NCBI GenBank assembly: GCA_019721075.1
Contig: JAHEAD010000008.1
Span: forward strand, 62,001-96,805
DNA from: Candidatus Sysuiplasma jiujiangense
Lineage (GTDB): Archaea > Thermoplasmatota > Thermoplasmata > Sysuiplasmatales > Sysuiplasmataceae
Direction: 5' to 3'
DNA length: 34,805 nt
Within the stretch, counting starts at the first letter, position 1. Each line of letters opens with the position of its first letter. The notes beneath the pieces are model-generated. The model saw nothing but the letters and a program-made list of their open reading frames with translations, did no database searches and was not told where the DNA came from. Below, one piece after another: positions 17,937 to 34,687 of this stretch. Position numbers and translations under genes: made by a program.

Positions 17937-20900
17937 CTAGTGCAGGTAGTCCGCAGATTCTGAAAGCCACTCTTCAGTGACCACCTCTTTGCGTGAAGGT
18001 ATGAACACATGGAAAACCGAGCCGCTTCCCACCTTGCTCTCGACCCAAATCCTGCCGCCATGCCTGTCAACGATGAGCTTCGAAATCGGAAGGCCGAACC
18101 TGAAACCGGTGCCGGAATGCAGGATTGAAGCATCAACAACATAATATCTGTCAAATATGAACGGCATATCTTCATCAGTAATGCCCCTCCCAGTATCCTC
18201 AACCGAAAGCAGGACTCCGTCCCTTTCGTTTTTAAGTGAAATGATTATTTTCCCGCCCGGATTCGTGTATTTCACCGCGTTAGAGACAAGATTGTGAAAC
18301 ACCTTTTTCATCAGCGAATAATTGGCATTTACTTTCGCCAGATCTTCCTGAATATCGACTTTCAGATCAATGGATTTTGTATCAAGTTGGGGGGAAATCA
18401 TCGAAGTGACCTCTTCAACCAAAGGCACCATGGAGATTGGCTGCATTTCTATTTCCAGCAACATAGCTTCCATTCTTGTGAATTCCAGCATATTTGTTAT
18501 TATCTCATTCAGTTCGGTTACGCTTGCTAGAAGGCTTTCTACGTTCTTCATCTCAGTTTCGTTGAATTTGCCTACCTTCCCCATTTTCATGAGCTCTATG
18601 TATACCTTGATAGATGTCAGAGGGGTCCGCAGCTCGTGGGCCGCAATGCTTGAGAAATTTGAACGCAGCGTATCCAGCCGGCTCAGTTTGTTGAGAGCGT
18701 CATATGTTGCCCTGAAATTTCTGGAGTTTTCGATACCGGTCGAAACTATGGCGGATACAGTCTGGATAAAGTCAAGGTCTATCTTACTGAACGAACCCTC
18801 AGAAATATTTAAGCAAACAATGGCGCCGAGTAATTTACCGGCAAAAGATATCGGTGCCCCCATGATTGATTTAATCGCATCTCCTTTGACTATATCTGCA
18901 AAGGCTGATCTGAAATCATCAGGAAAGTTTGAGATTGCCGTTTGGCACTTGCTTTCATTCTCAAAAGAAAAATAGCCTCCGGATTCTGTAATCACAGAAG
19001 CAAAACCGTTCTGTTTTTCCCCATACAGCTTCCACCGGCCGATGCCTGCACCCAGAGATTCCTCCACGAGGTTTTTATTATGACCGGAGGCAAACTCCAG
19101 CCGCAGCTGCCCGTTTTCATCCAGAAGGAAAATTAGCACAATATCCGGGGAAGTGAATGCCGTAACCTCCTCACAGCTGTAGTTCAGAATTGAACGAAGC
19201 TCAAATGTTGAACTTACATTTCTGGCGATTCGCAGTTCGGAAGACAGCGCGGAAAGAGAAAGAGAAGAATTGATTGCATTGCGTCTGCTCTCGATGACAT
19301 TAGAGAATGCGGATGCTATTGAGGCAGCTATCTCCATATTTTCTCCCGAGACATGTTTTCTCTGCAAGTCAAAGGCTACAAAAACGTCCTCACTGTCGTC
19401 ATCATGCTTATTCCCGGGAAGTATCAGGAGTGTGGAAACTCCACATCTGCTCAAACCAGGTCGTTCCAGCAGATCCTTTGATGAGATTTGAATCACTTTT
19501 CCTGCGGATTCCATATCTTTCGACAGAATGACGTCGCAGATTAACTTCCCAATGTCATTTATCAGCTTTGCATCGACGCTTTCTGCGGAAGAGAATACTG
19601 AAATGCAGTGAACGACTGCATCTCTCTTCCGCAGGCTGTAGAGAGCGGAGTGCGACATGCCTGTCACCTTTGATACAAGCAGGCAGAATCTTGACGAAAC
19701 ATCTGTCTCGTTTAGCTTCCAGCCGGTGCCGTCGGTTTTGAATGAGGAGGAAATCAGGTCGGACATATCAGCGCCAATGGAAAAATTCAATGACTTCATG
19801 CTTTGGGAGCCCATCATAAAAAGAAAATTTCCAAAAATACCAGCGTAACGCATGATGGACAGGTTACCGGTTTCTGATAACGCCGGCGATTTTCTGCCGA
19901 GAAGAAACAAATAGAAGAGCGGATAGGAGGAATTGTTGCCGACAGGCCCGGGCACAAGCAGGCCACTTTTAAAATTGTGCTGTTTGAGACCTGCGATTGT
20001 CTCTATTGTTATCTGCCGATTAAGAAAATCGGATTGTGAAATGCGATATGTTGAATGATGGGAAGCAGGTATGTCTTCAACTCTGATTTCCTCATTCAAG
20101 CCAGTCTCATTTTCTGGATAGGAGCATATAAGTTTGTAGTGACCTGCAGGCGAGTAATGGTAGAATATAGCAAGTTCGAATCCGAATGCGTCGGCCATCA
20201 GCCTGCAAAACGTGCTGCACAGTTCGTACAGCGTTGTTTGCGGGTCCAGTTTGCCGAACTCCTCAAGCAGAGCTCTGTTGACGGAATCGATTGATCGCCG
20301 GGCGCTGATGCCCTCTCTGAAATTTTCCAGCATGCAGATTGCCCTGAATACAGGTTTAAGGGAGGAGGCGGTTGCATTTGCTGCCTGGATCGACTCGTTT
20401 GATATAACGCATAGAAGAGAGATTAAGTCTTTGCCGCTGTGTTGAAAGAGACCTATGCAGACCTGATTGTCGTATTTGATCCTCTCCCCAAAAATTGAAA
20501 CCATCAGTTTCCCGAGCTGATTATCGTTTGAATTCTTTGTTTCGAAAATCAGGGTGTCGGAATAATCAGGGGCCAGCTGATCTGCAGTCAGGTTTGACAA
20601 ATCGGCTGTACCCACTGGACCATTGAATCGCCGGGCAACAGAAATACACTCCGGATCGCCTCCCTTTTTGAAGTATACTGCACAAGTCAGTTTTGAGAAT
20701 GCAGAAAGCAGGTTGTTCGCTACGTTATTGACTGGATTCTCACTGACATTTCTGGATGAAAAGGTGCTGATGAGACTCCTCAAACCGTCCAGATTTTCTC
20801 TCTCAGCAATCAACTGAGTGAGCAACGATATTTCGCGGCTCCTTGATCTTGCCGCAACCGATATTGCATTCAATGCAGCAGAGAGATACGAATATTCGGC

Positions 20901-22274
20901 ATCAGCCGCGGTTCTAGCATATACTGTCGATGCAGTTGCGCCCGATTTCATCAGCGGAATGTAGCAGAGGTAGTTAAGGCCGTTGCCTGAATCCGGCACG
21001 CCGCTTACGGGCGGTTCTGACAGAGATGTGCTTGAAACTTCGTTTTTTTCCGAAATTATCACTACCTGCTCAGCTGACGCCCTGTGAACATTGATGTCGC
21101 CAGCAAGATATCTTCCAGCCGATGAAGAATTCCGATCCGTGCATTTGCAGAATTCAGGACAACATGATACTGTTCCGTTACTGATGCTGAGCAGACAGAG
21201 TTCGGAAGAGTTGCCAAGAATGCCGGATAAGGCAGAGAAGGAAACTTCCAGCAGAGAAGGAATATCCGCAGTCAGACTGATTTCATTCAACGCTTCAACC
21301 AGAAATTGAGATTTGGCTGCAATTTCGATATCTGCTGCATCCCTGATATTCCCGAGGAGGAGCGATCTTATCAATCTCTGAAGCAGGGTGGCGAAATCCT
21401 CAAGCTGTTTGAACGGGGAATCGCCAGGATCTATCAAAAAAATAAGAATATAGTTTGATGCAATGGCAACAGGACAAAGTATCATGCCGCTGTAAAACTT
21501 TGCGAGGGTTGAGAAGGCCGGCGCAACATTGCTGTCTAAGCTGACGGAGATCTGCATCTTCAAAAGGATGTTGAGTTCTAAAAACACATTTGAATCGTTG
21601 CAGCAATCGCTAAGGGAAGGCTCGATATGAGAAAACAGACCGGATTCCATCAATCCGCCGTCCGTATAAATGTAAAGTGCGATCCTGTCAACCAGCAGAT
21701 TGTGCGAAATATTGCGCCGCAGCCTGTCAAGTGCATATGACAATCCTGACAAACCCTTATCAAAACCTGAACGGGATTCGTCGGCCTGCAGAGTAACGGA
21801 CGATTCGCCCATACTGCCCGAGAGTATAAATGAGCCACGGATTGTCCTTATCATAGACTCTTCCAAATTGCCTGAATCGGTTGTCGCTGGATCTACCAGC
21901 GACGCATGACAGAAACTATCATCCTTTATTGGAACAGTTAAATTAAAAATACTGTGACCGTCCATCTTGAAAGTCCCGTCTGGACAGGGTTCTGCCTGTA
22001 TCAATAAAGAAGACATTTTTTCCCTTGGAACGCTTTCTGAGAAGGACATCGAACTGAGCAATTGCCGATTATCCCGGAAGAGGCCCAACATGACCGCCTT
22101 TGACCCGGATAGTCCAATGCATAGCCGGGACGCAGCTGAGAGAGCCTTGCCAGCGTCAGTGTTTTTTAAATCCAGAGGGAAAAAAATATAGTCCGATTTC
22201 GAACCGTTAAGATTTGACACGCACGCTACACCTCCATGGGCGCAAATGGCGCTGCGGACAGACCGCGTGGACAT
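17937..22274 (-). CDS. Large soluble sensor histidine kinase (multiple GAF-like domains, HisKA, HATPase_c)
   Basis: H-box AAHELRTPLTSI, N-box NLVSNAVKY, G1 EDTGRGI, F-box IFDRYY, variant G2 GTGFRFGL, HGGRIWVES..G.GS.F. A clear GAF precedes HisKA (SIMGAPI...LLGAI...FSKIDLDFIQTV). No obvious TM segment. Confidence 0.92.
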   Translation of the reverse strand: MSTRSVRSAICAHGGVACVSNLNGSKSDYIFFPLDLKNTDAGKALSAASRLCIGLSGSKAVMLGLFRDNRQLLSSMSFSESVPREKMSSLLIQAEPCPDGTFKMDGHSIFNLTVPIKDDSFCHASLVDPATTDSGNLEESMIRTIRGSFILSGSMGESSVTLQADESRSGFDKGLSGLSYALDRLRRNISHNLLVDRIALYIYTDGGLMESGLFSHIEPSLSDCCNDSNVFLELNILLKMQISVSLDSNVAPAFSTLAKFYSGMILCPVAIASNYILIFLIDPGDSPFKQLEDFATLLQRLIRSLLLGNIRDAADIEIAAKSQFLVEALNEISLTADIPSLLEVSFSALSGILGNSSELCLLSISNGTVSCCPEFCKCTDRNSSSAGRYLAGDINVHRASAEQVVIISEKNEVSSTSLSEPPVSGVPDSGNGLNYLCYIPLMKSGATASTVYARTAADAEYSYLSAALNAISVAARSRSREISLLTQLIAERENLDGLRSLISTFSSRNVSENPVNNVANNLLSAFSKLTCAVYFKKGGDPECISVARRFNGPVGTADLSNLTADQLAPDYSDTLIFETKNSNDNQLGKLMVSIFGERIKYDNQVCIGLFQHSGKDLISLLCVISNESIQAANATASSLKPVFRAICMLENFREGISARRSIDSVNRALLEEFGKLDPQTTLYELCSTFCRLMADAFGFELAIFYHYSPAGHYKLICSYPENETGLNEEIRVEDIPASHHSTYRISQSDFLNRQITIETIAGLKQHNFKSGLLVPGPVGNNSSYPLFYLFLLGRKSPALSETGNLSIMRYAGIFGNFLFMMGSQSMKSLNFSIGADMSDLISSSFKTDGTGWKLNETDVSSRFCLLVSKVTGMSHSALYSLRKRDAVVHCISVFSSAESVDAKLINDIGKLICDVILSKDMESAGKVIQISSKDLLERPGLSRCGVSTLLILPGNKHDDDSEDVFVAFDLQRKHVSGENMEIAASIASAFSNVIESRRNAINSSLSLSALSSELRIARNVSSTFELRSILNYSCEEVTAFTSPDIVLIFLLDENGQLRLEFASGHNKNLVEESLGAGIGRWKLYGEKQNGFASVITESGGYFSFENESKCQTAISNFPDDFRSAFADIVKGDAIKSIMGAPISFAGKLLGAIVCLNISEGSFSKIDLDFIQTVSAIVSTGIENSRNFRATYDALNKLSRLDTLRSNFSSIAAHELRTPLTSIKVYIELMKMGKVGKFNETEMKNVESLLASVTELNEIITNMLEFTRMEAMLLEIEMQPISMVPLVEEVTSMISPQLDTKSIDLKVDIQEDLAKVNANYSLMKKVFHNLVSNAVKYTNPGGKIIISLKNERDGVLLSVEDTGRGITDEDMPFIFDRYYVVDASILHSGTGFRFGLPISKLIVDRHGGRIWVESKVGSGSVFHVFIPSRKEVVTEEWLSESADYLH

Positions 22275-22524
22275 ATCTTATTGGGAGGAACGCAGCAGAG
22301 GCGACTGAAAATTGAGTGAGAATAAGAGGTCATTTTACCTGATTTCAAAGGAGGCGGCGCTTTTAAAGCTTATTCCGAGAATTTCACGTATAGAAGTTTC
22401 ACCAGCAGGAGGAACGCATGAACTTGCCTGCAGTCATTACGGTTTTTAAAATTTCAACTCGACAGCATTAAATACGATTAGCTGAACTTATTTGTCATTA
22501 CAGACAAAAACGGTTGTAGCGATA
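22275..22524. promoter_or_regulatory. Divergent promoter region between the histidine kinase and the KaiC-like cluster
   Basis: Head-to-head gene arrangement; TATA-like elements TTTTAAAG (22361), TTTTAAAA (22444) and ATTAAATA (22467). Confidence 0.5.
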
Positions 22525-23268
22525 ATGTCGGAATTTGATCTGGAAGGTTCATTTCCAATGAGAAGTTCAATACTTCTCAGAGGACCTCCTGGAAGCGGAA
22601 AGACTGAGTTCCTTCTAGATCTTGCGAATCGCTGGCTTCTGAACAGAGAGAAAGTTCTTTACGTGGCTGTATCGACAAGCGGAGAAGAAATACTTTCGAG
22701 ACTGACCACCATGGCCGGTAGAGGAATACTGTCAGACCGACTCGTAATAATAGACTGCTACAGGAACAACCCAAGCGATTCAGGTGACAGGCTGATTGTG
22801 AACATAAACGGGCTCTCGCATCTGGAGAGCATAACTCTGGCCATATCAACAGCGGTTGATGGACTGGGGAGTCCTGTCAGAATCATCTTTGACGGATTGT
22901 CCACTCTCTTTCTGCACAATGCTCCGCAAACGATGGCAAAATTCTTTCAGGTACTTTCAACCAGATCAAAAGGTGAGTTCGGTTTTATACTTTCATCCGT
23001 CGTAGAAGGTATGCATGAAAACATGACAATGAATACGCTTATGTCTCTTGCCGACGGTGTTATTGAGGTGGCAGTTGATTCGAACATGGCCAGATTCATC
23101 AGGGTAAGATACATCAAGGGAAGAGAGAGCAATCCGATTTGGTACCAATACAAGCTCAGGAACGGAAAAGTGGAGCTGAAAACAGCACATTTCGACGAAG
23201 GAAGCACAGACGCAACTGACCGTAAGTTCGGAGATGGAAACATATACAAAAGAGGTGATTGGTTTTGA
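22525..23268 (+). CDS. KaiC/RAD55-family RecA-fold ATPase 1
   Basis: Walker A GPPGSGKT, IIDCY, Walker B IIFDG and LADGVIE. Start set at ATG 22525. Confidence 0.85.
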   Translation: MSEFDLEGSFPMRSSILLRGPPGSGKTEFLLDLANRWLLNREKVLYVAVSTSGEEILSRLTTMAGRGILSDRLVIIDCYRNNPSDSGDRLIVNINGLSHLESITLAISTAVDGLGSPVRIIFDGLSTLFLHNAPQTMAKFFQVLSTRSKGEFGFILSSVVEGMHENMTMNTLMSLADGVIEVAVDSNMARFIRVRYIKGRESNPIWYQYKLRNGKVELKTAHFDEGSTDATDRKFGDGNIYKRGDWF

Positions 23269-23981
23269 CGGATGTTTACACGACGGGCCGAATCAGAACC
23301 TACATTGACGGATTTGACGAGATAATCGGAGGTGGCATTCCGGAGGGGAGCGTAGTATTGCTTTCCGGCCAGCCCGGTACAATGAAAACTTCCCTTGCAT
23401 TCAGCATCATTTACAATAACGCCGTCAGAAACAGATTTGGCTCCGTCTACCTATCCCTGGAACAGAAGAGAAGCAGCCTGATTCGGCAGATGAATGGAAT
23501 GGGAATGGATATAGAGAAACAGGAAAGTGTCAGGGTGATGGACCTTAGCGGCATCAGGGAAGAACTCGAAAAAGCAGAAAGGGACGAAACAGTTATTACC
23601 GTTCTCAAGGAACACATCGAGAAGAGCATAAAGGATTCGGGCTGCAGGATATTTGTACTCGATTCTCTGAACGTGATAGACATTTCTGCCGGTTTGACTT
23701 CAAGAAGAAGTCAGATATACTTCCTGTTTGAGTGGCTGCGGGAAACGAATCTGACATCTTTTTTAATATCCGAAAGCAGCGCAGATGAAATACTCGACAG
23801 CGGAAGGGAAGAAGGTTACCTTTCTGACGGCATTATTCACCTCAGTCTGTCCTCCGAGGATGAAAATGCGGTACGAAGAAGAATCAGATGCGCGAAAATG
23901 AGAGGAACAAACCACGACACTTCATTCTATTCCCTACAATTTGTCAACGGAAAATTCGCAGTCACGCAATCTATGAGTTGA
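23259..23981 (+). CDS. KaiC/RAD55-family RecA-fold ATPase 2
   Basis: TYIDGFDEIIGGGIPEGS, GQPGTMKT, YLSLEQ, VLDS, YLSDGII and KMRG motifs; overlaps the previous stop, suggesting translational coupling. Confidence 0.92.
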   Translation: MVLTDVYTTGRIRTYIDGFDEIIGGGIPEGSVVLLSGQPGTMKTSLAFSIIYNNAVRNRFGSVYLSLEQKRSSLIRQMNGMGMDIEKQESVRVMDLSGIREELEKAERDETVITVLKEHIEKSIKDSGCRIFVLDSLNVIDISAGLTSRRSQIYFLFEWLRETNLTSFLISESSADEILDSGREEGYLSDGIIHLSLSSEDENAVRRRIRCAKMRGTNHDTSFYSLQFVNGKFAVTQSMS

Positions 23982-23986
23982 GCATT

Positions 23987-25219
23987 ATGGCGGATTTACA
24001 GTTCTGTCCAGTTTGCGGATATGCGTTGAGACGGCATGAAATGCAGTGCGGCCGGTGCGGCGAGGATTTTTCAGGCGGAACAAAGGGGGATGAAGAAAAC
24101 AGGAACAGAGGAAAAGGAGACACAGACAGATGGAGCGGAGATTATACAATTGAGGCAATAAGCTTTGGGCGCGTGGCAGCTGGTTCGGGTGTCAGGGAGA
24201 TCAACCCAAATGAAGGAGTTCAGGAAAAGAAAACATCATCCTTCCATTCCGGCAAAAAAGAGGCCACCGGTGACGATTCGGGTATGGTAGAGGAATTGAG
24301 AAGAAAGATTGACGAAATGAACCGGATGGTGGCAAATCTCACAAAACCAGCGCGGAATACCGCTGAAACCGCTGCCGATGGTCCTTCCGGCAGCACAGCT
24401 GACAGGGAGCGGCTGAAAAGGAGACCGTGGAACAGAAATGATCCTGAGTTCAGGGCGATGGTGAACATGCATCTTGCCAGGATAGCCGGCATGGAGGGCT
24501 CACGCCCAGAGGCCACGCATTCGCGTGCTGTGAGATATCTGCCTTTCATTTCACAGGATATGATAAGGCCTGGAATAGCTGATGATTCGGTGGTGCTGTT
24601 TGTCGGCCCTGCCGGGACAATGAAATCAACAGCTGCAATGACTGCGGGACTCGATATTGCAAGAATATCATCAAGACCGCTGCTCTACGTTCTCCTCAAT
24701 GATTCTGCGTCCAGATTCCTGGCAAAAGTCATACGCGCCGGCATCCTGCAAAATGAAGAGAAAAGACTCGTCCGCATCATAGACGGAAGGGAAATCAGGC
24801 AAAATACAACCGACTGGGAAGGGAACTGGCAGAAAATACTGATGGAGTATATGAAGAGAGAACTGGGAAAACAGAAATACTCGGCCGTCGTCCTCGACAA
24901 TATCAATTCATTCACTTCGATGGTAACATCGGAGAGACCACGCAAATCGGTGTTTGACTATTTCGAATGGTGCAGGGAAAGTGGTCTGATATGTATTGCG
25001 ATAAGAGAAGGAAGCTATGCATCGGCCCTTCGTGAGAGAACTGCGGAAGCTTATCTTGCTGACGGCGTGGTGCAGTTTTCGTCAAGGCAGACGGAAGACG
25101 GGAATACGATGCCTGTTTTCAGGGTCCTCAAGATGAGGGGGTCCGAGATAGATACGGGTTATTATGCGATTCAGCTGAGCTCCGGTGCCCTGAAGTTCGT
25201 TCCGGCAGTTGCGATTTGA
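23987..25219 (+). CDS. KaiC/RAD55-family ATPase 3 with N-terminal Zn ribbon and disordered/coiled-coil linker
   Basis: CPVCG...CGRCG; low-complexity linker; GPAGTMKS, VLDN, YLADGVV and LKMRG motifs. Start set at ATG 23987. Confidence 0.88.
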   Translation: MADLQFCPVCGYALRRHEMQCGRCGEDFSGGTKGDEENRNRGKGDTDRWSGDYTIEAISFGRVAAGSGVREINPNEGVQEKKTSSFHSGKKEATGDDSGMVEELRRKIDEMNRMVANLTKPARNTAETAADGPSGSTADRERLKRRPWNRNDPEFRAMVNMHLARIAGMEGSRPEATHSRAVRYLPFISQDMIRPGIADDSVVLFVGPAGTMKSTAAMTAGLDIARISSRPLLYVLLNDSASRFLAKVIRAGILQNEEKRLVRIIDGREIRQNTTDWEGNWQKILMEYMKRELGKQKYSAVVLDNINSFTSMVTSERPRKSVFDYFEWCRESGLICIAIREGSYASALRERTAEAYLADGVVQFSSRQTEDGNTMPVFRVLKMRGSEIDTGYYAIQLSSGALKFVPAVAI

Positions 25220-26235
25220 CTGCCTTCGGACTGCTGCCTTAATGCGGTACTGAGATGAATCGTCGCATTTTCCGGCGAAATTGAATTTATGTAGAAACCG
25301 GTACCCTTCTCGAAACCTGCTATTCTGCTGACGGTTGGTATAATCTCAATATGCCAGTGATAATATGGACATCCGATACTATTAACTGGCGATGTGTGGA
25401 TATAAAAATTGTACGGCGGATCGTCCAGAACAGAATAAAGGGCGTAAAGTGACTTTTGAAGCAGCGCCGCAAGATCTGAAGCTTCATCATGGGTGCATTC
25501 CGCAAATGACGGGCAGTGCCTTTTCGGCAGAATCATGAGTTCATAGGGGTATTTGGAGGCGAACGGTGCGATGCAGATGAAGGAATTGTTATCAAACACG
25601 ACCCTTTTGGCCTGCTGAATCTCCTCTCTTATTATAGAGTCATAGATGCAATCTCCACCCATGTCCGTAAAATAGTTCTCCGCGCCCCTCAACTCACTTG
25701 CGACATATACAGGTATCATCGGCGTCGCTATAATCTGGCTGTGGGGATGCTCGAGGGATGCACCTGCCTCAGAGCCATGGTTTTCGAATACGAGTATGTA
25801 TTTGAATCGCCTGTCCCTGGACAGATCTGTGACGCGCTCTCTGTACATCTGTATGAGTTCCCTTACCTGGCTGTGAGACTGCAGGGCTATTGGTTTTGAG
25901 TGCTCTGGCGACTCTATTACTACCTCATGACATCCTATTCCTGTTATATCGGTGAAAACCGATCTGGAATTCTTTTCCAGTTTTCCTTCGATCCTCAGTG
26001 CCGGAAACTTGTTTGGGACTGTTCTTATCCACCATCCGGGGCCATCCGGTACTGTGCTAACACGCCTGAAAGCATAGATCTCAGGAGGGGTCAGCCTCTC
26101 ATTTCCTTCGCAAAAAACACATGTGCCTTCTCTGACTGGCGCATGCGGCCTAACGAAGTCACGGGGTCTTTTTGCTCTCTCCTCCGAAATCACCACCCAA
26201 GTGTCCGTCACGTAATCTTTCCTAATCTCGGACAA
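25171..26235 (-). CDS. galT: GalT-family hexose-1-phosphate nucleotidyltransferase
   Basis: ERAKRP, CVFCEGNE..TPPE, VPNKFPAL, AGASLEHPHSQ (HxHxQ), YHWHIEI and AGFE motifs; GGAGG SD before a TTG start. Confidence 0.92.
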   Translation of the reverse strand: MSEIRKDYVTDTWVVISEERAKRPRDFVRPHAPVREGTCVFCEGNERLTPPEIYAFRRVSTVPDGPGWWIRTVPNKFPALRIEGKLEKNSRSVFTDITGIGCHEVVIESPEHSKPIALQSHSQVRELIQMYRERVTDLSRDRRFKYILVFENHGSEAGASLEHPHSQIIATPMIPVYVASELRGAENYFTDMGGDCIYDSIIREEIQQAKRVVFDNNSFICIAPFASKYPYELMILPKRHCPSFAECTHDEASDLAALLQKSLYALYSVLDDPPYNFYIHTSPVNSIGCPYYHWHIEIIPTVSRIAGFEKGTGFYINSISPENATIHLSTALRQQSEGSQIATAGTNFRAPELS

Positions 26236-26575: not shown

Positions 26576-26613
26576 CGTGAATGGATGCAGAGGCGGAATA
26601 ACAGGGATTCCTG

Positions 26614-26973
26614 ATGAAAGTTCTTGTTGTAGACGATTCGTCGCTTACGAGAGCAGCCATGGTTGCCGCCCTTTCTGCATATAACTACGAGATAGTGGCA
26701 GAGGGACAGGATGGCGACGACGCCGTCAGGCTCTACAAAGACAGGAAACCTGATGTTATTCTTATTGACCTGGCTATGCCGAACAAGGATGGGTTGGAGG
26801 CAATAAAGGAGATCCTCGAATTTGATCCGCAGGCAAAAATAGTTGCGATCAGTGCGCTCTATGACAGGAGCATGCAGAAGAGGGCGATTGAACTTGGCGC
26901 TGCTTCCTACATTGTCAAGCCTTTTGAACTCACTGAACTAATCTCGGTAATGGGCAAATTCGAGAAGCAATAG
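26614..26973 (+). CDS. Stand-alone response regulator receiver (CheY-like)
   Basis: VLVVDD, phospho-acceptor ILIDLAMP, AISA and VKPF motifs; no output domain. Confidence 0.93.
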   Translation: MKVLVVDDSSLTRAAMVAALSAYNYEIVAEGQDGDDAVRLYKDRKPDVILIDLAMPNKDGLEAIKEILEFDPQAKIVAISALYDRSMQKRAIELGAASYIVKPFELTELISVMGKFEKQ

Positions 26974-26985
26974 TATGGTGAGTTA

Positions 26986-27825
26986 ATGCTTCTTGGAGCT
27001 CATGTTGGCATAGGGGGCGGATTCTCGAAAGCCGTATCGTCCGGCATATCTATTAACGCGGATGCAATTCAGGTGTTCACCAGGAATCAGATGCAGTGGA
27101 AGGCAAAACCTATCGATGAAGGTGATGCCGAACTTTTCAAAACTGCATTCCGGGAAAGCGGATTGAAGAGTGTCGTCGCCCACGGTTCATATCTTACAAA
27201 TCTGGCAAGCAGCGAACAAACCACGGCCGATAAATCGGTCGAGGCGGTTATCGACGAAATTTGCAGATGTGACCTTCTTGGCATACACACTTATGTTTTC
27301 CACCCCGGCAGCCATGTTGGTGCTGGTGAGGAAAAAGGACTCAGAAGAGAGGCGGAAAATCTAATAAAGATACTTGATGCAACATCCGGTTGTAAGGTCA
27401 AACTCGCACTTGAAACGATGGCCGGCCAGGGGAATATCATCTGCAGCAGGCTGGAATCCATTGCTGAAGTCCTGAAGAGCGTGGACTCAGTGAGGCTGGG
27501 TGTCTGCGTGGATACTTGCCACATCTTTGCAGCCGGTTACGACATAACAGATAAATCCGGATTTGACAGGTTTATGAACAGTTTCAGAAAAACAATAGGC
27601 ATTAGAAGGCTGATTGCGGTACATCTGAACGACTCAAAAACAGAACTTGGCAGTCATGTAGACCGGCACGAGAATATAGGAAAGGGGAAAATTGGAATTG
27701 CAGGGTTCCGGGCCGTTATGAACACTGATGCTCTGTCAAAAATTCCGATGCTGCTTGAAACACCGGGGGGGGAAAGGGTCTATGCGCGCGAAATCAGGCT
27801 CCTCCGGGGGCTTGTGAAGAAGTGA
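26986..27825 (+). CDS. nfo: Endonuclease IV (AP endonuclease)
   Basis: LGAHV, AHGSYLTNL, FHPGS, LETMAGQG, CVDTCH, HLNDSK, DRHENIG.G and LETP motifs. Confidence 0.95.
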   Translation: MLLGAHVGIGGGFSKAVSSGISINADAIQVFTRNQMQWKAKPIDEGDAELFKTAFRESGLKSVVAHGSYLTNLASSEQTTADKSVEAVIDEICRCDLLGIHTYVFHPGSHVGAGEEKGLRREAENLIKILDATSGCKVKLALETMAGQGNIICSRLESIAEVLKSVDSVRLGVCVDTCHIFAAGYDITDKSGFDRFMNSFRKTIGIRRLIAVHLNDSKTELGSHVDRHENIGKGKIGIAGFRAVMNTDALSKIPMLLETPGGERVYAREIRLLRGLVKK

Positions 27826-29194
27826 TGCTTGAATATATTTCCAGATACTTCTTTGCAGAAACTTCCCATGAGAAATCACGTCCCATGCAGTTTCCCACAA
27901 CCGACCTCCATAACTCAGGGGAGGAATAAACAGAGACTGCTTCGGAAAGTGCATCTGCGAGCTGTTCATGATTTTCATCAACAAAGACGAACCCCTCCCC
28001 TTCGCCCGTATCCTGATCGAACTGGGATACCGAGTCCGCAAGTCCTCCTGTCTTTCTAACAACAGGGACGGTTCCGTATCGCATGCTTATCATCTGGCTC
28101 AGACCGCATGGTTCGAATCTTGATGGCATTACAAATATGTCCCCTCCTGCGTAAAGCCGATGCGCCAGCCTTTCGTCGAACCGCAGGACAGCCCTTATAC
28201 CGGGTGTCGAGGAGGCTATGTCACGTATCCTCTTCATGAGGTCCTCGTCACCTGTTCCCAGAACAATCAGCTGGAAGCCGTCTTCTATTTCGCCGAGCGC
28301 GTCAAGCAGCAGGTCAATGCCTTTCTGTCTCCACAGTCTCCCAATCGATACGATCAGGGGTCTTCTTACCTGGGGAAGCGAGAATTCTCTCTGAACACGG
28401 CTTTTGCATACAGACTTGCCGGAAATATCACCCCTGCTGTAGTTCGAAGGTATCATAGTATCGGTTGCAGGATTCCACATGTTGTAGTCGATGCCGTTGA
28501 GAACTCCCCTCAGCTTGTAACTTTCCTTTCTGAGTATTCCGTCCATTTTAAAACCGTATTCCGGCGTCTGAATTTCCCGGCTGTAACTGGGACTTACGGT
28601 AACGAGTGCGTCGGAATAAACGATTCCTGCCTTCATTGAACTTACATTTCCATAAAATTCAATGCCATCGATGAAGAAATACGAGTGATCTATACCTATA
28701 GTATCCATGAGCGAAGGGCTGTAGTTACCCTGGAATTCAAGATTGTGAATAGTGAACACGGAGCGTACGGAGGCTCTGTTCTGCTTGAGAAGCAGTGGCA
28801 CATATCCTGTCTGCCAGTCGTTGCAGTGTGCTATTTCATAGTTACCGCCGGATATCAGTTTGGCAGAAGCCGCCGAAAAATGGGCGAACCTTACAGGATC
28901 GTCCTCATATCCATACATCCGTGGTCTGCCGAATAGCTCGGGATTCCTTATCTTCAGTGCACGCCACGATCCTACATTCTCAGCTGAGATCTTGAATACC
29001 AGTCCGTTCAGGCTGATGGTTTCAGCCTGTTCATTTGGCACTGATGTCCCGCCGTCTGCATTGTAATCAGGTGTTATGACATCGACAGAATGCCCCATGG
29101 AAGAAAGCGTGTTGGAAAGCGAGTATACATAATCTGCAAGGCCCCCTGTCTTTGAAAACGGAAGCGCTTCAGCGGATACTACTGCAATTTTCAT
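27794..29194 (-). CDS. glgA: Glycogen synthase (GT5)
   Basis: E..PFSKTGGLAD, NDWQTG, FTIHNL.FQG, VSPSY..EI, NGID...WNP, MPSRFEPCGLSQ and TGGLAD motifs. True start ATG 29194. Confidence 0.95.
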   Translation of the reverse strand: MKIAVVSAEALPFSKTGGLADYVYSLSNTLSSMGHSVDVITPDYNADGGTSVPNEQAETISLNGLVFKISAENVGSWRALKIRNPELFGRPRMYGYEDDPVRFAHFSAASAKLISGGNYEIAHCNDWQTGYVPLLLKQNRASVRSVFTIHNLEFQGNYSPSLMDTIGIDHSYFFIDGIEFYGNVSSMKAGIVYSDALVTVSPSYSREIQTPEYGFKMDGILRKESYKLRGVLNGIDYNMWNPATDTMIPSNYSRGDISGKSVCKSRVQREFSLPQVRRPLIVSIGRLWRQKGIDLLLDALGEIEDGFQLIVLGTGDEDLMKRIRDIASSTPGIRAVLRFDERLAHRLYAGGDIFVMPSRFEPCGLSQMISMRYGTVPVVRKTGGLADSVSQFDQDTGEGEGFVFVDENHEQLADALSEAVSVYSSPELWRSVVGNCMGRDFSWEVSAKKYLEIYSSITSSQAPGGA

Positions 29195-29290
29195 TAACTC
29201 CCAGTCCTCATTGTAACATTGCAAAGCGTTGATCTGTTTACACTTACAGCCGATAAAGCGACCAATTATTATAATTCTCTTCGTACTGTC

Positions 29291-29710
29291 ATGCTGCATA
29301 TGACGGGATTTACACACCGGTTTCCTGTAAACTGGGTAGACACTGATGCACTTTCGGTTGTGCATTTCTCAAACTACTTCAGATATTTTGAAAAGACTGA
29401 GGATGCGTTCTACAGTAGCCTCGAATCAGAGGAAAGAGAATTGCTGAAAAGACTTCAGGTCTCTTTCCCGAGGGTGGATGTTCACTGCACCTACAGATCA
29501 CCGCTTAGATACGGGGACATTGCGGAGGTCGAGATATCCCTGGAAGGCATGACAGACAAATCCGTAAAACTGCATTTTGAAATCAGGAATGCAAGCCGAA
29601 AAGTGGATTCGGCATCAGGCCATATAACCCTCGTCTGCGTTGACACGAGTAACTGGAAGGCTGTCAGCATCCCTGAAAAGTTGAGGGAGATCTACAGGAA
29701 ACTCGGCTGA
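29291..29710 (+). CDS. YbgC/4HBT-family acyl-CoA thioesterase (hotdog fold)
   Basis: V.WVDTDA..VVHFSNYFRYFE and Y.SPLRYGD motifs. Start is ATG 29291 or 29300. Confidence 0.88.
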   Translation: MLHMTGFTHRFPVNWVDTDALSVVHFSNYFRYFEKTEDAFYSSLESEERELLKRLQVSFPRVDVHCTYRSPLRYGDIAEVEISLEGMTDKSVKLHFEIRNASRKVDSASGHITLVCVDTSNWKAVSIPEKLREIYRKLG

Positions 29711-29717
29711 GACATGC

Positions 29718-30899
29718 CTACTTCAGCGAATTTGTCCTGATCTGAACGAGAGCCATCAAAGTAGCAGCCAGAGCAGATGTGATGAAGGCATACAGATAAG
29801 ATGCAAAAATATTGAACGTGAATAAAATTCCCATAAGCAAATTGGACGAAAACAGTCCTATGCTCCTCCATGCTCCAAGACTGCCCATGCCACGCGAGAT
29901 GCGGTGTGGTGCGGCGAGCAGCGCTGCAACAACAGGTTCAAATGTTTCTATGCTTCCCGTGCCAACGCCAAGAAGAGCTGCTGAGAGATAGAAAGAAAAA
30001 AGTCCAAAGTGGTAAAGGTAGGCTATGCCTATTGACAGGGAACCTATTGCCGCAATCGAGTAGCCGAACATCCAGAGTCCTCCGGCGGGCTTCAATCTTC
30101 TCGAGCCGAAGAAATAGCCTGATAAACCCGATGCGCCGAGAAAAATTGCATAGGTGAGGAGACCTAATGAATAGCTGTTCTCGACCCTTGCGACTGTGAT
30201 TATCGGAAAACCCAGGCTGTAGTAGCTGAAACCGAAGAGACCGGCTGAGACCAGAAACAGTTTCATTGCTGAATCATTCTCCACCTGATTCACATTCTGT
30301 CCGTGAAAATTTTTGCTGAATTCCGTATTTCTGTTTTCCCTGACCAAGGAAAGAGAAAGGGACGAAACCAGTATCGGAATTACAGTAAGAAGCATAACGA
30401 GTGAGATACTGAAATTGGCATAGACAAGAAAGAAGGCTATAACAGTTGAAAGCATCCCCCCGCCCACATCCAGCAGATGCAGGAAACCAAATATCCTGGG
30501 ACGTTCCATCGTGTCTGACTGTTCGGCAAGCAATGCCCGCCTTGGAGGAGAACGGAAATTTCTTGACCACCAGCCACCAAGATAGAGACCGGAACTTTCC
30601 AGTATATTTGCAGGTAGACCGCTGAATGAAAGGAGCGGAATCAGCAGATTGCCTGCGAGGGAGAGTTTCTTTTTGCTGAACCTGTCACCGAGACGTCCTC
30701 CAATGTAAGAAAATAGCGATCCCACTCCATATGAAAATGACATCAGGAGGCCGAAAACATAGGCTGGCTGCTTCAGGATAAAAGTGACAAAAATAGGAAA
30801 GAGACCGATGACTGCCTGGTAACCCAAGTCGGCAAAGAATGCCGATAGCGATATCAACAATACTTCTCTCGTAAGCCATGCAGCTGTCTTGACAGCCAT
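29718..30899 (-). CDS. MFS transporter
   Basis: About 12 hydrophobic segments, motif A-like GGRLGDRFSKK, and R.PPR.ALL. Confidence 0.9.
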   Translation of the reverse strand: MAVKTAAWLTREVLLISLSAFFADLGYQAVIGLFPIFVTFILKQPAYVFGLLMSFSYGVGSLFSYIGGRLGDRFSKKKLSLAGNLLIPLLSFSGLPANILESSGLYLGGWWSRNFRSPPRRALLAEQSDTMERPRIFGFLHLLDVGGGMLSTVIAFFLVYANFSISLVMLLTVIPILVSSLSLSLVRENRNTEFSKNFHGQNVNQVENDSAMKLFLVSAGLFGFSYYSLGFPIITVARVENSYSLGLLTYAIFLGASGLSGYFFGSRRLKPAGGLWMFGYSIAAIGSLSIGIAYLYHFGLFSFYLSAALLGVGTGSIETFEPVVAALLAAPHRISRGMGSLGAWRSIGLFSSNLLMGILFTFNIFASYLYAFITSALAATLMALVQIRTNSLK

Positions 30900-31179
30900 A
30901 ACGGGTTCATTAACTGTTTGATATATTACGGTTGGTAAAACGGATGTTTTTAGTGCGCATCTTCTGATGGTGCCTGCGCTTCCTTCAGGTCAGAGCCTGA
31001 CAGGGGGCACCCGGAAAAGTGAAAAATGCAATAAGCTGGTTTCATTGCATTCTCGGGAATGAAAGTTGTCGTAACTTCTCTTTGGAAAGAATGATATACA
31101 GCACGATCCGTATAATACGCCGTGACGATAGCTTAAACGGTTGGATATTTAGCAGATAACGTGGGCTGGCAGTGATCAA

Positions 31180-32265
31180 ATGAAAGCGATAGTTATGGCA
31201 GCGGGAAAGGGAACGAGACTGCTGCCGATTACAGCTACAAGGCCGAAACCAATGATACCGTTATTGAATGAGCCCATACTCGACCACATGATGAAAGTTC
31301 TCAGGGAGAGCGGGGTGACAGAGGCGACCGTTCTTGTCGATTATCTCTCTGACAAGATCGTCAAGCATCTCGGCGACGGAAGCAAGTATGGCATGGAAGT
31401 TCAGTACACGACGGATAACATCAAAAGGGGTACTGCCGGGGCAGTGAAATTTGCGTCAGAGAATATCTCCGAGCCGTTTCTTGTTGTGTCAGCCGATGTG
31501 CTCACAACAATTGATCTGCGTAAATTCATCGAATCCCACCATGAACATGGGGCAGCTGTATCCATGGCACTCTCGAGTGTACGCGACCCGTCACAATTTG
31601 GTGTGGCAATACTTGATGAAAACAACCGCGTAACCAGGTTTCAGGAAAAACCGAAAAGAGAAGAGGCGTTCAGCAATCTTGTAAACGCCGGAATGTATGT
31701 TTGTGCGCCTGAGGCAATGAAACTCATACCGGCAGATCGGCCATCTGATTTTTCCAGGGATCTGTTTCCGCTGATGCTGTCAAGGAACGATCGCATCTAC
31801 GGTTTTACATTCGACAGTTACTGGAATGACATCGGTCTTCCGAGCACCTACTTGGGAGCCACAAGGGATCTTATTGAGGGACGCGTTGATGGCCAGGCAG
31901 CGGAGGAAAGCATATCAGACGACGAAGAAATGAAACACGGAAGGCTAGTGACTGGAAGCAATTGCTCTATCTCGGCATCCGTCCAGATTGAAGGCTTTGC
32001 GGTTCTCGGCGATAATGTGTCTGTGGGAAAAAACGTTAAGCTGTCACATTCGATAATCTATTCAAACACGCTTATAGGGGACAATTCAATTATATCGGAC
32101 GCAATTGTGGGGGAGGGTGTGATCCTCGGCCGTTCTGTTACCCTCGACGAAGGAGTTGTTATAGGGGACAGGACCAGAATCGGGGAGGACAGCCGCATAG
32201 GGCACAATATAAAAATCTGGGTACGTTCAAGACTCGGTTCCGGAACAAAAATGCTGCATACGTGA
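31180..32265 (+). CDS. NDP-sugar pyrophosphorylase (mannose/glucose-1-phosphate nucleotidyltransferase) with C-terminal left-handed beta-helix
   Basis: AAGKGTRLLPIT..PKP, GTAGA, FQEKP, VNAGMY and YWNDIG motifs; hexapeptide repeats. Confidence 0.92.
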   Translation: MKAIVMAAGKGTRLLPITATRPKPMIPLLNEPILDHMMKVLRESGVTEATVLVDYLSDKIVKHLGDGSKYGMEVQYTTDNIKRGTAGAVKFASENISEPFLVVSADVLTTIDLRKFIESHHEHGAAVSMALSSVRDPSQFGVAILDENNRVTRFQEKPKREEAFSNLVNAGMYVCAPEAMKLIPADRPSDFSRDLFPLMLSRNDRIYGFTFDSYWNDIGLPSTYLGATRDLIEGRVDGQAAEESISDDEEMKHGRLVTGSNCSISASVQIEGFAVLGDNVSVGKNVKLSHSIIYSNTLIGDNSIISDAIVGEGVILGRSVTLDEGVVIGDRTRIGEDSRIGHNIKIWVRSRLGSGTKMLHT

Positions 32266-32269
32266 TAAA

Positions 32270-33025
32270 ATGAGACTTTACTCGTGGGACAGATACGAAC
32301 CTCTGAAAGTGACTAATGCGGGAATTGCCATTGGCAAGTTCTTTGGCGAAAACCAGACCATCGGCACAGGAAGGGATGGCCATCCCATATCGAGGTTTAC
32401 AAGAAGATGTCTTGTCAGCGGCCTTGTGACCAAAGGAACACAAGTTCTCGACTTCAGATTGGTTCCCAGCCAGGTTCTTAGATTTGGCATCGGTAAGCAG
32501 AAACTCGACGGTGCTGTGTACGTGTCGTTTTACAGGGGAGAAGTCCAGATTCATGTGTACGACAGCGAGGGCAGGAATATGCATGCAGAAGGACTGCTCG
32601 AAATAAGAGAGCTTGCCGGGGAAACTGCAGGGGAAAGCTGCTCATCCGCCGATATCGGTTCACTGATGCAGTATACAAACGGCATAGATGACTACATAGA
32701 GCATTTGCTTCCAAAGATAAAGTCCAGGATAGCCGACAGAATGCTGATAGACACGCAGTCAGACCCGATATCACTCGTCGTTGAACCGCTAATGAAAAAA
32801 TTGGGCATAGAATACAGGATTTTCAACCCTATGCTGATAGACAGTGGTGAGACAGCCAGTAAGGAAGAATTTTTCAATGAGCTGAGGAATCAGAAATACG
32901 ATTGCGGGGCAATAATCGAAAGGGATGAGCTTCTCGGTGCCACTTTTATTGACAGAAACGGTTCTTCACGGCGTTTCGGCTCCTTCGAAGAGATGCTGAT
33001 TAAGCTTTCCGAAAAAGAAAAATGA
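32270..33025 (+). CDS. Truncated, degenerate alpha-D-phosphohexomutase-like protein
   Basis: Domain I pattern GRDG.PISR...L.SGL...G..V.DF..VP...RF, GAVYV, D.EG and DDYIEHL; lacks the SHN phosphoserine loop and DxDxD; only 251 aa. Confidence 0.75.
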   Translation: MRLYSWDRYEPLKVTNAGIAIGKFFGENQTIGTGRDGHPISRFTRRCLVSGLVTKGTQVLDFRLVPSQVLRFGIGKQKLDGAVYVSFYRGEVQIHVYDSEGRNMHAEGLLEIRELAGETAGESCSSADIGSLMQYTNGIDDYIEHLLPKIKSRIADRMLIDTQSDPISLVVEPLMKKLGIEYRIFNPMLIDSGETASKEEFFNELRNQKYDCGAIIERDELLGATFIDRNGSSRRFGSFEEMLIKLSEKEK

Positions 33026-33031
33026 GATAGG

Positions 33032-34687
33032 ATGATGCGGAAGAAATATCTTTCATTCATCTTTATTTTCCATCTGCCATGTCTGATGGGTGACGTTTCC
33101 GCATACAACGGCCAAGATTTGCTCAACGATGCGGTTTTTGAGAGTTATTTGCCGCTCATTATGTTTTTCAGAAATACGGAGCATTCTGCTGGAACGGTGC
33201 CTGTCAATCTGGCTGTATCGCCGGCGGTCACAGAAATGATGTCAAGGGGTTCATTCAGGAGAAGATTTGAAAAGTATGCAGATGATTTTGCCAGGACACT
33301 ATCAGGTGACATGAAGTTCTTCGCAGAGCATGGAAAGAAACGTCTGGTCAGGGCCGCGGAGTACTGGCTCGACAGACTGGATGGGATGATTTCACTGTAT
33401 AGCGACATAGACGGCGACATCGTTTCTGAGCTCGAGAAACTCGGTGGCAGAGGACTCGAGTTGATGGCTACGACAGCAACCAGCAACTGTATTCCCTTGA
33501 TAAGCTCCGATGTTGAAGTCAGGGCACAGATCAGGCTTGGCTTGAAATCGTTTGAAGAGACGTTCGGATATGTCCCGCACGGCTTCTGGCTGCCTTTTGC
33601 CAGGGACATATCGGCCACCTCCCATGAAAAACGTCTTGCAGACGGTACAGAGAGGACAGACTGGGTGACGGAAATACTGGCTGATGCAGGCATAAGCTAT
33701 TTTGTTGCTCAGCCTCACTGCCCGACTGCGTTGAGCATGCCGGACACTGACAGAAACACTTCAGGAGAGAAAAATACACAGTCCGAGGTGCCAAGGGGTC
33801 GTACATCAGAAACACAAATACAGGAAGTCCCACCTCGGCAAGGCGCGGGAGCAGGACGAAGATCTATCGTATCGTTTGAGGCCGACAGTGAATATGGAGA
33901 TCTGATTTTCCCTGTGACAGGCTTTCGAAAGGAGGTACCCGAATATTTAAACACGGCGAGAAGGACCTTTCCGGGAGGCATCCGCTACTGGAATAACACA
34001 GATGGTTCTGACGATTTGGAGGAACGCAATGCATACGGATATGAGACGGCAGAAGCGTTGGCTTCTGAGAAGTCGGCGATTTTTCTGGATGCCGTTCGTT
34101 CAGGAGCCTTTGGAGCGGACAGGGAGCTGGCCATAGTCCCTTTTTATACGATCTTTTCGGGAGAACCATGGCATGAAGCTCCGCTATGGATCGAAAAACT
34201 GTTCCTGAATATCGACGCCTCTGGCGTAAAGCCGACAACAGTTTCAGATTATCTGAAGATGAGCAAACCGGCAATGACGGATTCGAAGGCTGACATCGTG
34301 CGGTACGGCGAGTACGCTTTCTCAATGCTGTACAATGTGAATAGCGAACAGATTCTGAGAAGATTACATGAAACTGAGGCACGATTTGAAACCGTGCTGA
34401 CGGAAGAGTGCGGGTCAGGCGGAACTGAGTTAAGCAGAAGGGTGCTGAAACAGATGGCCAGAGAGCTTCTGATTCTCCAGAGTTCTGACTTGCAATTGCT
34501 AATATCCGAGAACAGACACAGAGAATATGCGAATAGAACAGTGCTTCACCATCTGGAACAATTCGACAGACTGGCTGAAATGTGGAAATCCGCCTACATT
34601 AGCGGGGACATGGCCAAAGAACTCGAAATGATCGAAAGGAATGATGACCTGTTCAGCTCCATCGACCTCTCAATGTGGAAGCAATAG
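33032..34687 (+). CDS. GH57 / DUF1957 glycogen branching enzyme-like protein with catalytic residues apparently substituted
   Basis: HLP, ESYLPL, AQI..G...FG..P.GFWLP and QMARELLILQSSD match the GH57 branching-enzyme layout; the catalytic Glu and Asp positions read F and Y. Confidence 0.82.
   Translation: MMRKKYLSFIFIFHLPCLMGDVSAYNGQDLLNDAVFESYLPLIMFFRNTEHSAGTVPVNLAVSPAVTEMMSRGSFRRRFEKYADDFARTLSGDMKFFAEHGKKRLVRAAEYWLDRLDGMISLYSDIDGDIVSELEKLGGRGLELMATTATSNCIPLISSDVEVRAQIRLGLKSFEETFGYVPHGFWLPFARDISATSHEKRLADGTERTDWVTEILADAGISYFVAQPHCPTALSMPDTDRNTSGEKNTQSEVPRGRTSETQIQEVPPRQGAGAGRRSIVSFEADSEYGDLIFPVTGFRKEVPEYLNTARRTFPGGIRYWNNTDGSDDLEERNAYGYETAEALASEKSAIFLDAVRSGAFGADRELAIVPFYTIFSGEPWHEAPLWIEKLFLNIDASGVKPTTVSDYLKMSKPAMTDSKADIVRYGEYAFSMLYNVNSEQILRRLHETEARFETVLTEECGSGGTELSRRVLKQMARELLILQSSDLQLLISENRHREYANRTVLHHLEQFDRLAEMWKSAYISGDMAKELEMIERNDDLFSSIDLSMWKQ

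Follow-up and report, generated by a model that had tools for sequence, protein, structure and literature searches.

Archaeal KaiC-like proteins reportedly form gene clusters that act as a 'signal transduction hub', a view said to go back to Makarova, Galperin and Koonin in 2017. Here we analyze a stretch of 34,805 nucleotides (the window) from Candidatus Sysuiplasma jiujiangense (Thermoplasmatota; assembly GCA_019721075.1, contig JAHEAD010000008.1, positions 62,001 to 96,805), in which a large soluble histidine kinase, three tandem KaiC-like genes (Kai1, Kai2 and Kai3, the triad) and a gene for a lone receiver lie beside genes of glucan metabolism: a GalT-like nucleotidyltransferase (galT), glycogen synthase (glgA), an NDP-sugar pyrophosphorylase, a truncated phosphohexomutase-like protein (the dead mutase) and a GH57 branching-enzyme-like protein. 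The window is archaeal by its proteasome and gene content; the source genome is 2.29 Mb in size and 97% complete, and the window takes up the end of its contig C54, stopping 118 bases short of the last base. With moderate confidence we regard kinase, receiver and triad as one protein-level signalling module, to which the adjacent glucan genes are incidental. The analysis draws on gene content, motifs, linkage counts and trees, from which we infer phosphotransfer, contact between receiver and KaiC, ring composition and signal direction.

Passages of PMC5847659 place iKaiC-REC and REC-DUF835 regulators in Methanomicrobia and Thermoplasmata, record receiver-KaiC fusions in other archaea and view archaeal two-component systems as acting through protein contacts; a module of kinase, receiver and triad fits both the fusions and the protein-contact view given there. 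The window resembles these archaeal hubs and regulators in having tandem single-domain KaiC-like genes, active as well as inactivated, joined to bacterial-type two-component parts, in an output that would be exerted by protein contact and in its GAF-rich cytoplasmic kinase and receiver-only regulator, both common archaeal forms. Unlike in them, receiver and KaiC are separate genes, Walker A is kept in all three Kai proteins, and the N-terminus of the kinase is family-specific and evolves very fast; and unlike the KaiC cluster of other families, that of the window lacks membrane V4R, DUF835 and small-GTPase members. It can be read as a variant of the predicted archaeal KaiC-like hub with two-component parts. 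In our literature search no paper turned up that treats the Kai cluster or ties KaiC to glycogen in Thermoplasmata; the text of the 2017 hub survey or the supplements of PMC5847659 may contain clusters of this kind.

The cyanobacterial KaiABC-SasA/CikA-RpaA system likewise brings together a KaiC-superfamily ATPase, a histidine kinase and a response regulator, with glucan metabolism nearby in concept (as parts of PMC11372060 have it). A preliminary description of this DNA, made from the letters and open reading frames, had drawn this analogy, and every defining feature tested fails: unlike the cyanobacterial clock, the locus has no double-domain KaiC, no CII phosphosites, no KaiA or KaiB, no KaiB-like kinase domain and no DNA-binding regulator.

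The KaiC-like triad, sensor kinase and lone receiver

The same description had reported a soluble kinase of 1445 amino acids (aa) head-to-head with three tandem KaiC-family genes, and the coordinates, orientation and domains of these genes were confirmed (Table 1). All three Kai proteins exceed the curated PF06745 cut-off of 26.6 bits and are thus members of the KaiC-like superfamily; their genes overlap or abut, and each protein has a single PF06745 stretch, i.e., there is no tandem CI-CII chain. Walker A, Walker B, the catalytic Glu and the K-x-R finger are the motifs for ATP hydrolysis. In Kai1, the alignment of which matches KaiC structures (E 1.6e-19), Walker A is intact (GPPGSGKT) and both the catalytic Glu pair and the Lys of the K-x-R arginine finger are replaced, and this protein probably binds nucleotide without hydrolysing it. 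Kai2 keeps the GxxGxMKT loop, the first catalytic Glu (LEQ), Walker B and the KMRG finger, is closest to CI (73 bits on the first domain of 8fwi and 32 on the second) and appears, from these motifs, to be the likeliest active subunit of the triad. Kai3 starts with a CxxC-CxxC zinc ribbon, whose four Cys are kept without exception in the 13 aligned proteins (from four families); a variable linker leads to the KaiC-like domain, which has the GxMKS loop and the KMRG finger and in which the first catalytic Glu is replaced. PF06745 has 17 matches in the source genome, and a second tandem of three KaiC-like genes was observed elsewhere in it (G000:C45:19974-22041).

Opposite the HISTITD of CII stand EGYLSD in Kai2, EAYLAD in Kai3 and LMSLAD in Kai1, so the CII Ser/Thr phosphosite pair is absent. 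KaiA and KaiB had no match each in the 97% complete genome with searches that were positive in Synechococcus, which extends to the genome an absence that had been stated for the window. For a timer of the cyanobacterial KaiABC type, circadian or hourglass, nothing speaks but the sequence relationship to KaiC; the single CI-like domains, the missing CII pair, the absence of KaiA and KaiB and the lack of a DNA-binding regulator in the module make such a timer extremely improbable, and a circadian clock was rejected on the first three of these grounds.

The kinase has a database form of 1427 aa and lies about 300 bp from Kai1. Pfam places GAF at 1026-1179, HisKA at 1204-1270 and HATPase_c at 1321-1428; the phospho-His is His1213, the H (HELRTPL), N (NLVSNAVKY), G1 (DTGRGI) and F (FDRYY) boxes are intact, and the G2 box is a conserved variant (GFRFGLP/GFRLGLP). 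No convincing membrane segment was found (two isolated hydrophobic windows are not conserved among kin), and the domain scan gave neither a KaiB/thioredoxin-like nor a receiver-like domain. Among the sensors scanned in the genome it is the only one with a Pfam HisKA match. Its earlier designation as a multi-GAF kinase holds in part. Pfam detects one GAF only, both in this kinase and in all four relatives scanned, and a generic GAF profile built from proteins outside the family recovered the last GAF alone in a single-sequence search, with no N-terminal match in the window kinase and at most 11.6 bits, in one relative, on the N-termini, which is barely above shuffled controls. Profile comparison pointed to a further GAF-like unit around residues 330-470 (probability 72%) and to an internal repeat in which 680-815 resembles 850-1000 (82%), and a language-model search with residues 300-1010 led to GAF clusters at 0.97. 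The N-terminal region of about 1000 aa is probably made of tandem GAF-like domains, the count certain by Pfam being one. Identity within the genus is 10-34% per 100-aa window over these first 1000 aa, as against 73-78% around the phospho-His, and the region is family-specific (10 representatives at E<=1e-30 among 1.84 billion). It diverges far faster than any neighbouring gene, and its length varies by up to 300 aa among relatives.

Apart from this receiver, no receiver-only protein was found in the genome. A receiver 87% identical to it stands in a cluster attributed by its source to Candidatus Sysuiplasma superficiale, in keeping with a Sysuiplasma-like member of Thermoplasmata. D7, D8, D52 and K102 are invariant in 13 of 13 aligned sequences and S80 in 12 of 13; the gene is preceded by a gap of 379 bp, and nfo (endonuclease IV) starts 12 bp after it. 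A chemotaxis CheY was considered and rejected, because neither CheW nor archaellin was found in the genome and the NF041367 score is 96 bits against a cut-off of 200. One relative has a diverged second copy (50%) of the family receiver (L111, G001:C81:434-919).

In the module that we favour, the multi-GAF kinase would sense small molecules in the cytoplasm and autophosphorylate on His1213, and the phosphate would pass to Asp52 of the lone receiver, a step suggested by co-location and gene counts. The receiver, without an output domain, would act by protein binding, and its likeliest partner would be the assembly of Kai1, Kai2 and Kai3, which may be a mixed ring, with one subunit active and the other two partly inactive, that serves as a nucleotide-dependent switch. 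The signal might also run in reverse, with the KaiC ring as an input that regulates the kinase N-terminus as in SasA and the receiver as output. The divergent pairing of kinase and Kai1 and the open function of the N-terminal 1000 aa would agree with this; yet the kinase lacks the KaiB/thioredoxin-like domain, its fast-diverging GAF-like N-terminus next to conserved Kai proteins would better fit ligand sensing, and the Kai-linked kinases outside the family carry PAS or Cache sensors instead, so that we consider the reverse direction quite improbable.

Linkage inside the family

The family of the source genome (f1; other f-numbers are other Thermoplasmata families) was represented by nine relatives from genera g1, g2 and g3. 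The order kinase-Kai1-Kai2-Kai3-galT-receiver-nfo is kept in all eight relatives from g1 and g3 (in one of them, G002, 5 kb are inserted before the receiver, and the pyrophosphorylase unit now lies apart from glgA), and the divergent promoter region of kinase and Kai1 is common to all nine genomes of these two genera. Genus g2, represented by G004 (80% complete, short contigs), shows the order Kai2-Kai3-receiver-nfo-glgA, with 78 bp from Kai3 to the receiver and no galT between them, and on a second contig glgA-thioesterase-MFS-pyrophosphorylase-dead mutase; galT, the kinase and Kai1 were not found in this 80% complete genome. The insertion of galT between Kai3 and the receiver is thus a feature of two of the three genera.

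Background synteny was measured in two control genomes. Of the 270 neighbouring orthologue pairs sampled from G005 (19 stretches from 7 contigs), 223 are neighbours in the source genome too, with blocks of up to 46 genes, and in G004 (21 stretches) 249 of 303 adjacent pairs are kept; 169 of the 324 sampled g2 genes lie in blocks of at least 8, and blocks of 21-46 genes are common with G005. Since 82-83% of all adjacent pairs are kept across both controls, linkage within f1 is not evidence of shared function, and sedolisin, sufT, proteasome beta, nfo and the thioesterase are linked as tightly as the signalling and glucan genes. The proximity of KaiC-like and glucan genes looks like ordinary inherited gene order and not like evidence for a glycogen switch. 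Conserved linkage in relatives, which the preliminary description had proposed as a check, exists inside f1, where it is uninformative against this background, and fails outside f1.

Kai1 loci outside the family and repeated recruitment

The Kai1 subfamily is present in 94 of 401 genomes of the class Thermoplasmata and forms one well-supported clade in a quick tree, as all trees here are. From about 95 matches outside f1, 39 Kai1 loci were analyzed, picked for long contigs and family spread, together with 17 glgA loci out of 28 outside matches. A kinase and/or a receiver occurs in the fetched stretch of 7 of the 39 Kai1 loci, and additionally in L036, L149 and L150; glgA, galT, GH57 and the dead mutase occur in none of the 39. 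The usual company of Kai1 consists of KaiC-like genes, a KaiC-Arf GTPase fusion, a Ras-like GTPase, V4R/DUF835 membrane proteins, TPR and HTH proteins, of which only the DUF835 proteins and the Ras-like GTPase have counterparts in the source genome, on other contigs. The clusters of f14 and f20 run kinase-receiver-HTH-Kai1-(V4R membrane protein)-Kai-ZnR/Kai, and these two families, in which kinase, receiver and KaiC go together, are without glgA (0/7 and 0/6). Conversely, none of the 17 glgA loci has a KaiC-like gene or a receiver (an unrelated kinase lies 6 kb off in one), galT is beside glgA in 13 and an intact GH57 branching enzyme is present in 8. Eighteen outside genomes carry both Kai1 and glgA, in no case on one contig (the assemblies are fragmented). 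Judged by this gene content, galT and GH57 are members of an old glgA cluster, and signalling genes are the proper company of the Kai cluster.

A large conserved Thermoplasmata cluster with up to 7 KaiC-like genes, the KaiC-Arf fusion, the Ras-like GTPase, the V4R and DUF835 membrane proteins, zinc-ribbon/TPR-KaiC proteins and a double-HTH regulator was observed as well (L054, L055, L058-L068, L084, L090, L092), and two of the families that have it include a PAS kinase and a receiver. In f4, f24, f26, f30, f33 and f35 a lone Kai1 adjoins a gene of 480-530 aa (L071-L083, L085, L086), and both of the gene products scanned proved to be GvpD-like P-loop proteins. Searched with the Kai1 alignment, named genomes gave at least three weak, irrelevant loci; a metagenome scan with the receiver alignment gave 83 loci among the matches listed, all of them generic receivers at 30-45% identity.

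The kinase cores beside Kai clusters fall into three lineages, one of f1, one of the main f14/f20 cluster and one of a paralogous f14/f20 cluster with f16, and the receivers split into the same lineages, the f1 kinase and the f1 receiver each forming a clade of its own. The f1 kinase matches the Kai-linked kinases of f14/f20 at 33-35% and unlinked kinases at up to 38%. Orthology of the f1 kinase and receiver with those of f14/f20 was rejected by the trees, in which long branches were flagged. Because linked kinases and receivers belong to at least three separate lineages, the pairing of kinase, receiver and Kai cluster has arisen repeatedly, and the independent assembly of this circuit that had been proposed agrees with the separate position of the f1 clades. 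With a chance of roughly 2-5% per locus of a kinase within 5 kb, three recruitments among about 10 Kai1 lineages would be expected around once in a hundred (a hand estimate from rough counts). The strongest argument for a joint function of kinase, receiver and triad is this repeated recruitment, and the earlier proposal of such a unit, acting by protein contact and independent of KaiA and KaiB, gains support. The f1 module may be a stripped-down form of the widespread Thermoplasmata KaiC cluster, from which membrane sensors, the small GTPase fusion and the HTH gene are missing and to which a family-specific kinase and receiver would have been recruited.

Several observations weigh against such a module. 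In 32 of the 39 outside Kai1 loci neither a kinase nor a receiver is present, i.e., the cluster works without them in most families, and the chance estimate depends on rough counts and on kin lineages that are not independent. Correspondence of Kai2 and Kai3 to the second and third genes of outside clusters was unresolved by the tree and depends on position and the zinc ribbon. At the locus itself, galT lies between Kai3 and the receiver in the window and in 8 relatives, nfo is coupled to the receiver, and the genome has three other non-hybrid GAF-HATPase sensors that could be partners of the receiver; in the 80% complete g2 genome no counterpart of the kinase was found.

The kinase-receiver pair, the triad and the glucan genes might all be unrelated neighbours, the pair acting on a target elsewhere and the KaiC triad being independent. 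The 32 clusters without a two-component gene and the coupling of the receiver to nfo agree with this explanation; some chance adjacency is to be expected where a genome has up to 24 KaiC-like matches and several kinases, and most archaeal receiver-only genes have no conserved neighbourhood, as far as the relevant passages of PMC5847659 go. It does not account for the kinases beside Kai1 clusters, which come from no fewer than three unrelated lineages, the divergent kinase/Kai1 promoter region in 9/9 genomes of g1 and g3 or the direct adjacency of Kai3 and receiver in g2, and we think it unlikely.

Glucan genes and the proposed carbon-storage switch

Downstream of the triad, the GalT-like gene, the lone receiver, glgA and the NDP-sugar pyrophosphorylase were all found as previously described. 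The 'glycogen locus' of that description survives insofar as glucan genes are present; they form three separate transcription units on alternating strands, interspersed with nfo, thioesterase and MFS genes, and the main glucan cluster, glgB (GH13)-glgE-treS-mak-glgX-treZ-treY, is on another contig (G000:C12:83449-97462, L041), where no signalling gene stands among the seven. Each of glgE and glgB is present in 9 of 10 f1 genomes. 1z84, the closest solved relative of the GalT-like protein, is presumably an ADP-glucose phosphorylase.

No glycogen synthase was found in the source genome other than the window GlgA, whose KTGGL and FEPCGL motifs are intact. No GlgC exceeded the TIGR02091 cut-off of 425 (the window pyrophosphorylase has 133 bits and the best match in the genome 159), and glycogen phosphorylase (GlgP) was not found in this genome. 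In Pseudomonas aeruginosa, according to sections of PMC11046441, GlgA makes a linear glucan that is converted to trehalose and enters the GlgE route, a route also listed there for a few Thermoplasmatales. Like the Pseudomonas described in those sections, the source genome has GlgA without GlgC and contains TreY, TreZ, GlgX, TreS, maltokinase, GlgE and a GH13 GlgB; unlike in P. aeruginosa, the host is an archaeon, glgA is apart from treY/treZ, no glycogen phosphorylase was found, and glgA is accompanied by a dead GH57 and a GalT-like enzyme.

That two of the carbohydrate enzymes are dead, as had been claimed, is confirmed for both by their lost catalytic residues or loops. The mutase-like protein (about 250 aa) lacks the phospho-Ser loop (TASHNP), the metal loop (DGDADR) and the C-terminal domains, and its catalytic death, read from this loss, is taken as confirmed; an intact phosphohexomutase of 450 aa is encoded on contig C15. 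The dead mutase is present in 10/10 f1 genomes and in 7 of 251 outside genomes (E<1e-20), always directly behind the pyrophosphorylase. The pair was thus observed in families f1, f22 and f28 (L133-L144 besides the window). The seven outside genomes, from f22 and f28 only, all carry glgA elsewhere, unlinked, and 7 other outside glgA genomes in the same searched range are without it. It may be a regulatory subunit of a pyrophosphorylase that substitutes for GlgC. Like the nucleotidyltransferase-phosphomannomutase fusion SCO1388 of Streptomyces (in the part of PMC5982138 that treats it), the pair consists of a pyrophosphorylase followed by a phosphohexomutase-like part; unlike SCO1388, it is two genes, and the mutase part has neither catalytic loops nor C-terminal domains. 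No longer fused relatives of the dead mutase were found, which is weak evidence.

The GH57 protein matches the branching enzymes 3n8t and 5wu7 over its full length; unlike in these, the nucleophile Glu, the acid/base Asp and the HxHLP motif are altered in all five f1 copies, whereas they are intact in 8/8 copies from f25/f27. The f1 copies are mostly 22-29% identical to one another (about 29% within the genus), and the gene is absent behind the dead mutase in 5 of 10 f1 genomes. A plain pseudogene was rejected: because none of 400 neutrally mutated lineages remained stop-free at 29% identity, the frame appears to be under some selection where it is kept. The lost catalytic residues and the drift suggest that GH57 was replaced by the GH13 branching enzyme, and the frame was perhaps retained as a glucan-binding protein. 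In f22, f25 and f27, glgA-galT(-GH57) clusters add a GT4 glycosyltransferase and a maltokinase-like gene (L095-L099, L103, L109, L112). The glucan genes of the window would be scattered remnants of the older archaeal glgA-galT-GH57 cluster, situated beside the Kai cluster since the f1 ancestor, and they may have stayed there because f1 rarely rearranges its genes.

The preliminary description had instead placed carbon storage under the control of the circuit, so that kinase, triad and receiver would be a post-translational switch acting on GlgA, the GalT-like protein or the pyrophosphorylase with its pseudo-mutase, the genes having been gathered for this purpose. The block Kai3-receiver-nfo-glgA-thioesterase-MFS-pyrophosphorylase-pseudo-mutase is indeed present in all three f1 genera, and galT, a partner of glgA elsewhere, is inside the Kai-receiver unit in two of them. 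GlgA, without GlgC and GlgP, would moreover stand at the entry to a Pseudomonas-like GlgA-TreY/TreZ-TreS/Mak-GlgE/GlgB route and hence be a sensible control point, and the kinase and receiver are family-specific, so that other families do not speak against a function confined to f1. These points are countered by a conservation equal to background, by the equally tight linkage of nfo, thioesterase, proteasome beta and sedolisin, by the separate units on alternating strands (one of them displaced in G002), by the absence of a Kai-glucan link in any outside family, including the 39 Kai1 loci, and by the seven glucan genes of the other contig that lack a signalling gene. Control of carbon storage has no support beyond the neighbourhood, and we consider the switch unlikely.

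Other genes in the window

The coordinates of the genes discussed are given in Table 1. The view that nfo, the thioesterase and the MFS transporter are incidental neighbours is upheld. At lower positions, the window contains an ordinary beta-oxidation unit (3470-7407) of consecutive genes for a thiolase, an OB-fold partner, a 3-hydroxyacyl-CoA dehydrogenase and an acyl-CoA dehydrogenase, a secreted-looking Thr/Ser/Pro-rich protein of 912 aa with internal repeats and no Pfam match (8770-11508, +), and a sedolisin-like protease with PKD domains (12516-15368, -). A small gene (16739-16960, -) encodes a protein of about 73-75 aa without Pfam match that is 85-98% identical across f1 and groups with unnamed clusters of 72-76 aa, mostly from Thermoplasmatota (0.92). 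One metatranscriptome contained a 0.13 share of the window words, and 7 short metatranscriptome contigs, which carry no strand or transcript limits, lie on psmB, this small gene, Kai3, the receiver-nfo and pyrophosphorylase-mutase junctions, and glgA; two further RNA runs had no contigs on the window.

Table 1. Genes of the KaiC-like locus and its glucan neighbourhood (positions within the window)
Feature	Position	Strand	Evidence or remark
Soluble sensor histidine kinase	17937..22274	-	Open frame 1445 aa; likely start 22220; Pfam domains
Kai1, single-domain KaiC-like	22525..23268	+	PF06745 E 2.8e-10, 40 bits
Kai2, single-domain KaiC-like ATPase	23259..23981	+	PF06745 E 4.7e-43, 148 bits
Kai3, zinc ribbon and KaiC-like domain	23987..25219	+	PF06745 E 2.3e-15, 57 bits
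GalT-like nucleotidyltransferase	25171..26235	-	Closest solved relative Arabidopsis GalT-like 1z84, E 1e-68 (1hxp: 6e-29)
Stand-alone CheY-like receiver	26614..26973	+	Active site D7 D8 D52 S80 K102 intact
Endonuclease IV (nfo)	26986..27825	+	Incidental neighbour, equally conserved
Glycogen synthase GlgA (GT5)	27794..29194	-	TIGR02095 512 bits vs cut-off 328; start 29194
Acyl-CoA thioesterase (4HBT family)	29300..29710	+	Incidental
MFS transporter	29718..30899	-	Incidental; not at same place in G005
NDP-sugar pyrophosphorylase, left-handed beta-helix	31180..32265	+	Signature motif intact
Truncated phosphohexomutase-like protein	32270..33025	+	Directly behind pyrophosphorylase; 54-77% conserved in f1
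GH57 branching-enzyme-like pseudo-enzyme	33032..34687	+	Full-length match to 3n8t, 5wu7, E 1e-41

Implications

A glycogen output would be far more striking than a signalling module alone, but it is unsupported by gene order. That the multi-GAF kinase and the receiver gate a Kai ring which directly controls entry into glucan and trehalose (through GlgA, the GalT-like protein, or the pyrophosphorylase with a dead-mutase subunit) is in our judgement rather unlikely; if true, it would be a carbon-storage switch made of KaiC and two-component parts that evolved independently of KaiA, KaiB and transcription, and an archaeal KaiC hub would for the first time have a metabolic output. Two by-products of the analysis concern glucan metabolism itself: the pair of pyrophosphorylase and dead mutase tracks glgA in genomes without GlgC, and an archaeal family carries a bacterial-type GlgE/GlgB/trehalose cluster alongside a GH57 branching enzyme that has decayed. 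Archaeal KaiC-like proteins and receiver-only regulators are abundant and almost without known partners, and the kinase, the receiver and the triad would offer a compact, all-soluble set of five proteins that could be rebuilt in vitro to ask whether a two-component signal enters a KaiC-like hub.

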